Virus record (IMG/VR): IMGVR_UViG_3300011415_000011
Location: 1-41,203 of that record
DNA from: a virus
Taxonomy: Duplodnaviria > Caudoviricetes
Length of the DNA stretch: 41,203 bases
Strand: one strand, 5' to 3'
The translations under genes were made by a program, and so were the position numbers. Positions 28,203 through 38,753 of this stretch are shown piece by piece; the first letter of the stretch is position 1, and every line of letters starts with the position of its first letter. The notes below the pieces were generated by a model that was given only the letters and a program-made list of their open reading frames with translations, did not search any database and had not been told where the DNA came from.

Positions 28203-28289
28203 GAGTTCCGTATCTCAACTGGAAGAGAGGCGGTATTATGGGGTAAAGCTCAGTTATGCAGGTTATGGGTTCAAATCCCATCGGAACTC
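28203..28289 (+). tRNA. tRNA-like element with an expanded, non-canonical anticodon arm
   Basis: Acceptor GAGTTCCG/CGGAACTC, D arm TCTC-AACTGGAA-GAGA, T arm ATGGG-TTCAAAT-CCCAT; anticodon region is 30 nt instead of 17. Confidence 0.65.
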
Positions 28290-28538: not shown

Positions 28539-29405
28539 ATGTTAAACGGATTATCCCTCTTTACTGGAATAGGTGGCTTAGATGTGGCTTTATCTGACTG
28601 GGTACGACCAATCGCCTACTGCGAAATCGACCCCTACTGTCAAGGAGTCTTGCTCTCTAGACAGGCGACATGCGATATCGGAATTGCACCAATCTGGGAT
28701 AATGTATCTACACTCTCTTGTGGACATTTCGACGTTGCAATTGACATCATCTATGGAGGATTTCCATGCCAAGGAATTAGCGTTGCAGGACTTGGAAAAG
28801 GCTTGGCGGACGAGAGAAGCGGACTATTCTTCGAGATTGTGCGTTTGGCCAAAGAAATCAAGCCCATTTTCATATTCCTTGAAAACGTGCCTGCCATCAC
28901 TAGGCGTGGGGGTTTGGAAGTCGTTAGAATCCTTGCCGAAATGGGGTATGATTGTAGATGGTGTGTTATTTCCGCTGCAAGCGTTGGAGCGTTACACCGT
29001 CGCGAGAGATGGTTCTTATTGGCTCACGCCAAGCACAATGGAGCATCTACCAGTGAGAACAGGGGAAGCGTTAAAGAAAAGCATGTGTCGGGGATCGACG
29101 AGCAAAAGAAAGACAGCAGGTCGACTCAACGAACAAGTTGCTTATCCACAGATGTGGCCGACACCAGCAGCGAGGGATTGGAAGGACAACGGCAAATCTC
29201 CTTCGGAAATGAAAAGGAAAAGCCCATCACTTCCAGCAATTGCCATCCGTTTGAATCCAGAGAGCATTGGCAAAAAACTGTGTCCAAAATGGATAAGTGT
29301 TCTCATGGGTTACCCTTCCATGTGGACAAAATTAGAGCCCTGGGCAATAGCGTATGTCCTCAGCAAGCGAAAGAAGCGTTCAAAATCTTAATGGGTTTAA
29401 ACTAA
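28539..29405 (+). CDS. dcm: C5 cytosine DNA methyltransferase, alpha-type subunit
   Basis: Motif I LFTGIGG, IV GGFPCQ, VI ENV, VIII HRRERWF and X RALGNSV; motif IX not evident. Confidence 0.92.
   Translation: MLNGLSLFTGIGGLDVALSDWVRPIAYCEIDPYCQGVLLSRQATCDIGIAPIWDNVSTLSCGHFDVAIDIIYGGFPCQGISVAGLGKGLADERSGLFFEIVRLAKEIKPIFIFLENVPAITRRGGLEVVRILAEMGYDCRWCVISAASVGALHRRERWFLLAHAKHNGASTSENRGSVKEKHVSGIDEQKKDSRSTQRTSCLSTDVADTSSEGLEGQRQISFGNEKEKPITSSNCHPFESREHWQKTVSKMDKCSHGLPFHVDKIRALGNSVCPQQAKEAFKILMGLN
28582..29391 (+). CDS. Overlapping +1-frame methyltransferase beta-type subunit (TRD-like repeats plus motif IX)
   Basis: YWLTPST and MWPTPAARDWKD, then KLCPKWISVLMGYP..WT; true start may be internal (e.g. 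ATG 28948). Confidence 0.65.
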   Translation: MWLYLTGYDQSPTAKSTPTVKESCSLDRRHAISELHQSGIMYLHSLVDISTLQLTSSMEDFHAKELALQDLEKAWRTREADYSSRLCVWPKKSSPFSYSLKTCLPSLGVGVWKSLESLPKWGMIVDGVLFPLQALERYTVARDGSYWLTPSTMEHLPVRTGEALKKSMCRGSTSKRKTAGRLNEQVAYPQMWPTPAARDWKDNGKSPSEMKRKSPSLPAIAIRLNPESIGKKLCPKWISVLMGYPSMWTKLEPWAIAYVLSKRKKRSKS

Positions 29406-36371: not shown

Positions 36372-36438
36372 AACTGCTTTACACGACGCGGTATTGTGTC
36401 AATTAAAATTTGACTTAATACTGCGTCGTAAATATATT
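36367..36438 (+). promoter_or_regulatory. MCP promoter overlapping an inverted repeat, with an adjacent palindromic operator
   Basis: TTGACT (36410)-N17-TATATT (36433); arms ACGACGCGGTATT/AATACTGCGTCGT; TGTAAA-N5-TTTACA at 36367. Confidence 0.65.
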
Positions 36439-36580: not shown

Positions 36581-36844
36581 ATGTCGATCGCGACTACTGG
36601 CAATTTAGGGCCAATGATCTTGCAATCGCTCGCGCCTGCAATGTTATATGTTCCTACGCCAACAATGAATTACATTACTGTTTGTGACAAAGTAAGTATG
36701 CCAGCTAATGGCGGTACTACAATGCGTTTTATGCGCCCACGTGCGCTACAGCCACCTACTGTACAATTAGGAAATTCTGGTATTGATCCACCAGCCCAAG
36801 TGCCTCAAAGAGATATCATTGATGCACAAATGGCATTTTTCGGT
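36581..36844 (+). CDS. Major capsid protein (N4-gp56-like), exon 1 (88 codons)
   Basis: ATG after SD GAGGT; SMPANGGTTMRFMR...DIIDAQMAFFG. Confidence 0.85.
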
Positions 36845-36885
36845 ATAATTGCCAGTGCCGAAAATGAACCCGATTATGCTTATAG
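36845..36885 (+). ncRNA. 41-nt core-less group I-type mini-intron
   Basis: Follows U and ends in G; guide GCCAGT-GCCGAAAA pairs with 5' exon TTTTCGGT (U-G wobble) and 3' exon ACTGGC; removal restores FFG-TGCIINEQV in frame. Confidence 0.75.
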
Positions 36886-37053
36886 ACTGGCTGCATAATC
36901 AACGAGCAAGTGATACTTCAAGATCAAGAGGGTGTTTTGGCTTGGGTGTCAGATAGGCTCGCCGTCGCAATGAGACAAGCGGAAGATTTAATTTTAAGAG
37001 ATTATATTGTTTCTGCTGCGTCACAAATCAATGCTGGCGGAGGTTCCAACGGT
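36886..37053 (+). CDS. Major capsid protein, exon 2 (56 codons)
   Basis: TGCIINEQVILQDQEGVLAWVSDRLAVAMRQAEDLILRDYIVSAASQINAGGGSNG, containing a spine-helix-like segment. Confidence 0.85.
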
Positions 37054-37243
37054 AGAGTTGTTGCCGTTGTAAAATCAGACCTAATCGACTTGGAACTCTG
37101 ACCACGTAATGGTGAAGACAACAAGGCGGAACCCGAAAGGGACCGTGAACGACTAAAGCGGTCAGACACCGAAAGGTGAAGCGATAGTCTAATCTCATAG
37201 GAAACTATGAGAGGTGGCAGAAATGACCACCCGCTTAAGTGTT

Positions 37244-38155
37244 TTAAATACCTTTACGATTAAGATCATGAACTTTATGAAAAAGCTTATCTCTAACTTC
37301 AAGAATAGTAGCGTAGAATTCTTTAAATTTTGGAGAATTTCTGCTTATATTTCCAGTCAAGGGTACGGTTGTTTCAAAAAAATTCATGAGTTCTACACAA
37401 ACAGGTTTTTTGTGTTTGAGATAAGGAAGAATTCTTGGAAGAATATCCCCGAGAGATTTACTAGAAAGACGCCATGTCAAGAAATCTCTATGATTGATAT
37501 CTTTGGATCTACGTTCAACAAAATGAACTTGGCCTCCAAATCTTTCCATAAGCCATTTAAAAATAGGAAATTTGGTGTTTCCACATTGAAGAAGAATTTT
37601 GTAAATAAAATTATCCCTGTTTTTTTGAGTGTATCTAAATATTCCAAGAGAACATTCGGCATCAATGAGGCCAGAGAGATAAACAAAATCCAATTCATTG
37701 GGAACAATTGTCAAAATATGCTCACTCAGAGATGCTTTGTCAGTTTTTTTTATCAAATTTCTTTCATTTTTAACTTTCTTAAGTTGATTCATCAAAATAT
37801 CTTTTTCAATAGGACAAGAAGATTTAATAAATTTGCAGTAAATTTCTGCTTCTTCTCGTTTTTCAATGAGAAAAGGAAGAATTTGTTGCACAAATTTAAT
37901 AGATTTTTTGCCTCTGATAATAAAATGATGTTGAGGTTTCCATTTAGAAGACCTTGTTCCATTGTCTGCAATCCTTCGCACTCCTGGAAAAGTCTTTATA
38001 AGAAACTCAATTATATTTGTATCAGTAGAAGAGATGATGAAAGAACATGCGTATTTAGCTGTTCCAGTGGTTTTTCGGATGGTTTTTCTTATATGAAAAC
38101 ACCCGTCTCCATCTGTATAACCAGCTACATAAGTTAAGGTATTTTGATTTATCAT
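37244..38155 (-). CDS. Double-motif LAGLIDADG homing endonuclease, antisense to its host intron (303 aa)
   Basis: YVAGYTDGDGCF and YLSGLIDAECSL; probable start MINQNTL at 38155. Confidence 0.9.
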   Translation of the reverse strand: MINQNTLTYVAGYTDGDGCFHIRKTIRKTTGTAKYACSFIISSTDTNIIEFLIKTFPGVRRIADNGTRSSKWKPQHHFIIRGKKSIKFVQQILPFLIEKREEAEIYCKFIKSSCPIEKDILMNQLKKVKNERNLIKKTDKASLSEHILTIVPNELDFVYLSGLIDAECSLGIFRYTQKNRDNFIYKILLQCGNTKFPIFKWLMERFGGQVHFVERRSKDINHRDFLTWRLSSKSLGDILPRILPYLKHKKPVCVELMNFFETTVPLTGNISRNSPKFKEFYATILEVRDKLFHKVHDLNRKGI

Positions 38156-38161
38156 GTGAAT

Positions 38162-38190
38162 AGTATCACAGGATAAGGCATTTAAGTCAA
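38162..38190 (-). promoter_or_regulatory. Intron-internal sigma70 promoter for a leaderless endonuclease mRNA
   Basis: TTGACT-N17-GATACT with TG extension, followed by 6 nt and ATG. Confidence 0.7.
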
Positions 38191-38204
38191 CAAGTAATAG
38201 TATG

Positions 38205-38753
38205 TTCAATCCTACGAATTTAGGTGTTAGTGACTTTAGTTTAGTTGCTACTACACTAGATACTAATAATGCGTATAAGTTCATGACAGGTATTGAAGGC
38301 ATGGACAGATTTGGGACCGGTCCTGTACGAAGTGCGTATTTTATGCTTTCGTCAACTGAGCTACAAAGCGATTTTGATGGCCTAGTAGGCTCTGGCTTCC
38401 TCTCACAGTGGAATTATCCTACTAATGCTTCTGCGTTGCCCAGCGAATATGGCTCAGTGTATAACATTCGTGTTCTCACTAGCTCTGAAGCACCAGTTGC
38501 AAGAAATGCTGCTATTAATAACGTTGGTGTTCTTAACGACGTTTATTACAATACCGTACTAGGTAAACAAGCGATTACGCATATTAATCAGAATGGCTTT
38601 AGCATGAATCTGATCTATCGTGATCCTTACTATTCTGGAATGCTTGCACAGAATGCGACTTTGGCAGTTAAATTTGCTCAAGCGCAAGCTATTACGCAAG
38701 ATACAGCTATAAGAAATGTTCTCTCAACTCGCAACAGTGCATTGGGGGTATAA
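38205..38753 (+). CDS. Major capsid protein, exon 3 (182 aa)
   Basis: FNPTNLG...GTGPVRSAYF...SEYGSVYNIRVL; SEYG..YNIR pattern typical of HK97-fold capsids. Confidence 0.85.
   Translation, partial: FNPTNLGVSDFSLVATTLDTNNAYKFMTGIEGMDRFGTGPVRSAYFMLSSTELQSDFDGLVGSGFLSQWNYPTNASALPSEYGSVYNIRVLTSSEAPVARNAAINNVGVLNDVYYNTVLGKQAITHINQNGFSMNLIYRDPYYSGMLAQNATLAVKFAQAQAITQDTAIRNVLSTRNSALGV

Follow-up and report, generated by a model that had tools for sequence, protein, structure and literature searches.

A 41-nt insert in the major capsid gene of a phage is best explained as a core-less group I substrate module that would be excised by a ribozyme 168 nt downstream, to which it is predicted to be tethered (probability, roughly 0.76). 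The window, i.e., the whole stretch of DNA that was analysed (41,203 nt), represents a ~41-kb phage genome with genes for a terminase, a P22-like portal, and ERF and YqaJ recombination proteins. From the comparative evidence below, we infer both the excision of the mini-intron and the borrowing of its catalysis. The larger picture, towards which we lean, is a natural system of two introns and one ribozyme, in which satellites are tethered to a downstream intron, splicing is coupled, the elements spread by homing, and the exon has been recoded for a destruction tag.

The interrupted capsid gene

The gene at positions 36581-38753 encodes a major capsid protein of the N4-gp56 family; an intact relative (326 aa) scored 82.8 bits against TIGR04387 (cutoff, 60) and also matched phrog_1357, and the capsid annotations of relatives read only ‘N4-gp56 family’. 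Exons 1, 2, and 3 were 95, 96, and 94% identical to intact relatives, the gap left being exactly the insert, and together the exons amount to 981 nt, or 326 codons plus a stop. A spliced alignment to the intact 326-aa relative, which gave no bonus for U or G at the gap ends, put gaps of 41 and 1151 nt at codons 88/89 and 144/145, respectively. The exons and the parts of the first insert are as follows:

36581..36844 (+), major capsid exon 1 (88 codons), from the alignment of relatives; 36837-36844 is the exon strand of the mini-intron P1
36845..36885 (+), core-less mini-intron, 41 nt, after U36844 and ending in G36885 (putative omega-G)
36851..36856 (+), P10 part of the guide, pairing with 36886-36891 (6 bp)
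36857..36864 (+), P1 part of the guide, in which G36857 pairs with U36844 (pair probability, 0.66–0.99)
36886..37053 (+), exon 2 (56 codons), from the alignment of relatives; predicted to fold back with both ends meeting
38205..38753 (+), exon 3 to the stop codon, from the alignment of relatives

An earlier, sequence-only reading of this DNA had described an insert of 41 nt that follows U and ends in G, with a stop at 36896-36898 in the unspliced frame, and had claimed an 8-bp P1 with a U-G pair at the junction plus a 6-bp P10; all of these were recovered here. Its proposal that the capsid frame is restored without the insert also holds, as intact relatives are continuous exactly at this point. 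Other sequencing runs bear out the 41 nt, in that contigs of three DNA runs (X3, X4, and X5) bridge the insert with 0 differing letters, which rules out an assembly error. X3 and X4 possibly stem from the same campaign as the source, and X5 is from a different habitat and year. Among 20,000 shuffles of the insert, none produced both P1 and P10 (P1 alone, 1.4%). In the precursor fold, P10 had a probability of 0.0 and lay outside the minimum-energy structure; the P10 of this mini-intron is supported by complementarity and covariation. A catalytic core (P3–P9 with a G-site in P7) was absent from the 41-nt insert and from all core-less inserts tested. Having failed the core test, the insert is therefore not a group I ribozyme, and it appears to work like a group I substrate.

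No matching isolated phage was found, and when a host was sought, 14 of the loci fell into genome bins that belong to unrelated phyla. Upstream of the capsid gene, a long inverted repeat (36375-36428) was noted by eye, with look-alikes in runs X24 and X10. Elsewhere in the window, a tRNA-like sequence (28204-28289, +; Rfam RF00005, 41 bits) occurs near a gene for a C5 cytosine methylase (28539-29405, +).

A family of core-less inserts

In total, 298 loci were fetched and, after the removal of duplicates, yielded 76 capsid genes with introns (window included) and 191 inserts, comprising 133 full introns (at least 196 nt), 54 mini-introns (29–79 nt), and four inserts of ~950 nt. The 58 core-less inserts occupy four sites in the capsid gene (264, 275, 312, and 342), and every one is compatible with U|...G boundaries (58/58). 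A core profile built from 26 short full introns matched all 133 full introns and none of the 58 core-less inserts, in line with the lack of a core predicted by the sequence-only reading, and a P7 motif pair was found in 0 of the 54 mini-introns.

Pairing signals were retained across the mini-introns. P1 averaged 7.4 bp (minimum, 6), a U-G pair was present at the 5′ splice site in all site-264 members compared (23/23), and P10 reached at least 4 bp in 52 of the 54. Watson-Crick pairs in P10 were more numerous in the 54 mini-introns than in 121 full introns (5.1 compared to 2.8; p = 3e-12), a comparison that left out 12 full introns with a P1 of <6 bp in the first 60 nt; the longer P10 may arise because the choice of 3′ site in mini-introns has no core of its own to help. 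Covariation of guide and exons, another expectation of that reading, was borne out by compensatory pairs at P1 positions −4 and −7 and at P10 position +3. Among these 23 site-264 mini-introns, P1 −4 is C-G in 21 and U-A in two, and P10 +3 is paired throughout, in three types (U-A, A-U, and C-G). All 54 mini-introns shift the frame or contain a stop. One case, a 29-nt mini-intron (L155:4266-4294) without P10 and without the read-through tag described below, is either a decayed member or an assembly error.

The four core-less introns of ~950 nt (L040, L041, L065, and L071) are all at site 312 and carry a homing endonuclease; in the two inspected (L040:2694-3665 and L065:2729-3681), a LAGLIDADG-type ORF fills the P1 loop. 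From their content, such introns appear capable of homing but not of self-splicing. A sigma-70-like promoter precedes the endonuclease ORF in these introns. A full group I intron at site 264 (L161:3516-4227, reverse-complemented locus) has the same P1 guide as the mini-intron of the window and is a plausible candidate for its ancestor. A metagenome scan, used as background only, returned 79 genes without an intron among the best 80 matches.

The helper intron

The sequence-only reading had placed the start of a full group I intron 168 nt downstream of the insert, and this intron, here termed the helper, does lie there. Its parts are:

37054..38204 (+), full group I intron (helper), 1151 nt, from the alignment gap, an RNA contig, and core covariation
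37075-37081/37160-37166 (+), helper P3, from covariation
37087-37092/37122-37127 (+), helper P4, from covariation
37151-37155/37185-37189 (+), helper P7, from covariation
37167-37178 (+), helper P8, from covariation
37244..38155 (−), LAGLIDADG endonuclease ORF, antisense in the helper (PF00961, E = 4.6e-08)

In an alignment of 39 introns, helices P3, P4, P6, and P8 covaried and P9 aligned poorly, while P7 was fully paired in 34 of the 39, with three pair types. No Rfam group I match to the helper occurred at E up to 1. In RNA run X22, position 37053 is followed directly by 38205 in one 85-nt contig, without a mismatch (depth, 2; shorter arm, 30 letters at a threshold of 31), and the same run also holds one unspliced contig; the joint did not show in the DNA runs examined. 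The joint contig fits splicing of the helper, and DNA of an intron-less strain may be its source. Coverage of X22 was confined to 36958-37108 and 38205-38259, short of the mini-intron, that of X24 to the 5′ end, and run X23 probably represents DNA of relatives.

The start of the endonuclease at 38155 is putative; the mechanical ORF starts at 38302, in exon 3. On the capsid strand, the region over the antisense endonuclease is an open frame of 307 codons (37214-38137, +). Other full introns in the set (L106 and L168 at site 366; L176 at site 432) have 3′ domains with long unrelated insertions or short ORFs.

Co-occurrence with a downstream intron

It had been predicted that core-less inserts would be found together with a full group I intron, and a downstream full intron accompanied every one: 57 of the 58 were aligned, and in the 58th (L297) a full intron starting at site 366 is cut short by the end of the contig; no core-less insert was found without one. 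A full intron upstream was present in only 25 of the 58. Among 100 distinct full-length genes collected by exon match alone, 25 have both kinds of insert, 0 have a core-less insert only, seven have a full intron only (sites 280–435), and 68 have neither. The three pattern searches for inserts required no helper. These counts ignore kinship, and neighbouring inserts could be linked by co-conversion in homing alone. Over all loci, for which sampling was partly pattern-based, a core-less insert occurs upstream of every full intron at sites 290, 303, and 366, such that the link runs both ways. Mini-introns and full introns alternate (mini, full, mini, full) within a single capsid gene at five loci (L019, L052, L064, L168, and L283), with a predicted tether from each of these mini-introns to the full intron that follows it.

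Tether between mini-intron and helper

The comparative predictions of the sequence-only reading held; it had neither the tether described here nor the ssrA-like tail. Across the family, the part of the mini-intron 3′ of the guide is complementary to the exon directly before the P1 of the next full intron. In the window, this pairing and its neighbours are:

36866..36870 (+), tether A, mini-intron strand; predicted partner, 37042-37046, right before the helper P1
36872..36879 (+), tether B, mini-intron strand; predicted partner, exon 2 at 36893-36900, with the 3′ splice site in the 13-nt loop between the strands (probability, 0.98)
37042..37069 (+), exon strand of tether A (37042-37046) followed by the helper P1 (37047-37053 with 37063-37069), from fold prediction

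For mini-introns at site 264, the next full intron is 26, 32, 39, 96, 102, or 168 nt away, and the pairing partner mostly moves along with it; three cases with the full intron at site 296 pair further upstream. The tether helix was better than 95% of other exon windows for 31 of 37 mini-introns, and the same was true for 18 of a further 21 inserts that came to light afterwards. When 53 contiguous stretches of mini-intron, exon, and helper were folded without constraints, P1 was present in 51 and at least four tether pairs were expected in 48.

Tether A of the window is only 5 bp long, 6% of other exon windows score equally, and its exon strand is present in 25 of 108 intron-less genes. An equally good tether A arose in one of 200 shuffles of the 3′ part of the mini-intron. 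The fold of 36825-37240 gave tether A a probability of 0.88 (mini-intron P1, tether B, and helper P1, near 0.98), and the helix is present in this fold because exon 2 folds back on itself. In a relative with an exon 2 80% identical to that of the window (L005), the tether A helix is kept through a two-sided compensatory change. As the tether would set the P1 of the mini-intron beside that of the helper, it strengthens the case for a borrowed core.

An ssrA-like end in the unspliced frame

Translation of the unspliced capsid RNA would end in a short C-terminal motif:

36887..36898 (+), Leu-Ala-Ala-stop that exon 2 codons spell out when read in the unspliced frame; the read-through product ends ...AENEPDYAYRLAA

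An in-frame read-through end of Ala-Ala or Val-Ala occurred in 56 of the 58 core-less inserts, 53 of the 76 full introns that are not helpers, and five of the 57 helpers. The same ends were found in the two other frames in one and 0 of the 191 inserts, and the chance level is 0.4% (338/81,146 random-frame ends). At site 264, the tag lies inside the insert in ten of the 11 cases with an internal stop (L155 being the exception) and is written in exon 2 in 16 cases, all with a length of 2 mod 3. Codon 92 is ATA in 13 of these 16 genes compared to five of 108 intron-less genes, and the tag motif itself occurs in only three of the 108; this codon bias and this rarity argue that exon 2 was recoded to suit the unspliced frame.

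Helpers are poor in the tag. With a stop at least 12 nt inside the intron, the tag was present in five of 35 helpers compared to 53 of 57 other full introns, and at site 432 in 0 of two helpers (window included) compared to eight of eight others. This scarcity suggests that ribosomes seldom meet an unspliced helper; either the mini-intron would shield the helper, with both leaving close together, or the helper would leave first.

Protein made from uncut RNA is likely tagged for destruction by its Leu-Ala-Ala end. That the Ala-Ala-stop is instead an element for RNA docking or a signal that makes ribosomes pause, with no part as a protease tag, seems improbable to us. The motif does sit in structured places (the L1 loop and a P5 extension), and stops that lie in frame close to a 5′ splice site help folding according to the available text of a review of phage introns (PMC3984707), yet it keeps its frame, its third codon positions vary, Val-Ala is allowed, a hydrophobic residue is preferred ahead of it, and it shifts between insert and exon. 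Three other roles considered for the GCNGCNTAA motif (promoter, methylase site, and docking loop of the RNA) were rejected when it proved to be the in-frame Ala-Ala-stop.

Proposed mechanism and alternatives

In the proposed mechanism, exon 2 is modelled as looping out, with the mini-intron P1, the tether, and the helper P1 in a row before helper P3. Introns that have P1-P2-P2.1 place these in front of P3. The helper core would then dock the mini-intron P1, guanosine would cut after U36844, the long P10 and tether B would align exon 2, and G36885 would enter the G-site, upon which exon 1 would be joined to exon 2; the helper would also remove itself at its own sites. Before the mini-intron is removed, ribosomes would halt at the Leu-Ala-Ala-stop, and the capsid fragment would likely pass to a ClpXP-type protease. 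Excision of this sort is chemically possible since engineered group I ribozymes carry it out, by the available text of their descriptions (PMC4094466, PMC2532722). Removal of the mini-intron first and in cis has about an even chance of being the route taken; a less likely course is that the helper, once excised, removes the mini-intron while remaining bound to its own exon junction. In either order, the two removals are likely closely coupled, since helpers rarely carry the tag of other full introns.

Other explanations of the insert place its removal elsewhere or do without it. It is unlikely that a foreign core or factor (a released intron, maturase assistance, or the host) removes the mini-intron while the neighbouring intron is a fellow traveller. 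Homing with co-conversion can link adjacent inserts, some core-less inserts have upstream introns as well (the 25 above), and LAGLIDADG proteins can be maturases in trans (PMC3073962, in the text available), but the tether shifts with the position of the full intron that comes next, for helper sites from 290 to 432, and many helpers are ~200 nt long, with no space for an ORF. Self-splicing with exon help, after the manner of the 67-nt fungal PaSSU intron, finds a parallel in the P1, P10, and tether-B-like intron-to-3′-exon pairing of PaSSU-type introns (63–75 nt; PMC3160393, as far as its available text describes them). Those introns have P7, however, while the mini-introns lack both the P7 motif pair and any core match, some are just 29–33 nt long, and a self-splicing element would need no downstream intron, yet one is there in every case; this explanation is very improbable.

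We give hardly any credence to skipping of the insert by the ribosome, through bypass or frameshifting of an unspliced message, for which the insert is suitably short, forms a hairpin, and has a stop nearby. Bypassing of the T4 gene 60 type involves matched take-off and landing codons and a stop after take-off; matched codons occurred in 0 of the 54 mini-introns and a stop right after the junction in one of the 54. Mini-intron lengths, moreover, span all three frames, the U|...G boundaries and guide covariation are signs of splicing, and four members of the family contain a 950-nt endonuclease gene. The insert could also be the decayed remnant of an intron that is no longer removed, in capsid genes that are dead, as might be thought from the failure to find a matching isolate phage and from the full intron of L161, which could be its source by deletion. 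This too is very doubtful, given that the exons are still 94–96% identical to intact proteins, that guides, tether, and tag are retained across diverged sequences at four sites, and that the identical sequence recurs in several runs.

Implications and comparison with known systems

If true, the arrangement would represent an extant intermediate form between self-splicing and spliceosome-like splicing, and its read-through tail a phage counterpart of nonsense-mediated clean-up. The separation of catalysis from splice-site signals has long been put forward as a step in the origin of spliceosomal introns, and a natural family would show how the two part ways. It would also supply design rules for excision ribozymes (a tether beside P1 and a long P10). 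More generally, short frameshifting inserts in phage genes, usually written off as assembly errors, can be real introns, and a tag in the unspliced frame can influence which codons an exon uses.

Exon skipping is a property of the Twort introns. The literature searched, which took in few subscription journals and no supplements, held no precedent for a natural group I core acting on another intron. The available text of three reviews (PMC3984707, PMC3073962, PMC8393795) contains neither core-less introns nor degrons, though in-frame stops near 5′ splice sites are noted. The accessible part of a preprint on Staphylococcus jumbo phages shows no ‘mini-introns’.

The helper is a group I intron of the kind found in phage protein genes, with a LAGLIDADG ORF. 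The mini-intron shares with the phage group I introns described in the available text of PMC3984707 the P1 U-G pair, the internal guide, P10, and the terminal G, and differs from them in having no P3–P9, so that a single core would have to handle the four splice sites of two introns. Among natural introns, the closest parallel is the fungal PaSSU group, small introns of SSU rDNA (PaSSU, 67 nt; range, 63–75 nt) that, going by the text available (PMC3160393), are also short and have P1, P10, and 3′-exon pairing. By that description, the PaSSU introns retain P7, self-splice, and reside in nuclear rRNA, whereas the mini-introns have no P7, span 29–79 nt, occur in phage mRNA, and always precede a tethered full intron.

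In the ssrA (tmRNA) degron for ClpXP, as given in the available part of PMC10638403, the C-terminus is likewise Ala-Ala (ENYALAA compared to DYAYRLAA in the window); unlike ssrA, the tail of the window is encoded in unspliced mRNA, partly by exon codons in another frame, and is not added by tmRNA. In twintrons, tandem introns, and trans-spliced introns (PMC8393795, by its available text), splicing of one module likewise needs another, but the modules there possess cores of their own or come together as parts of a single intron; in the present case, the core-less intron and its presumed catalyst are separated by a coding exon. Trans-excision-splicing ribozymes and spliceozymes (PMC2532722, PMC4094466), to judge from the text available, come close in function, as a core likewise excises a foreign internal segment and joins its flanks, but they are man-made and hold the guide in the ribozyme, while the present system is natural, with the guide in the substrate. 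We rate the two-intron, one-core arrangement, with its presumed catalytic step, as a new kind of system made of group I parts.
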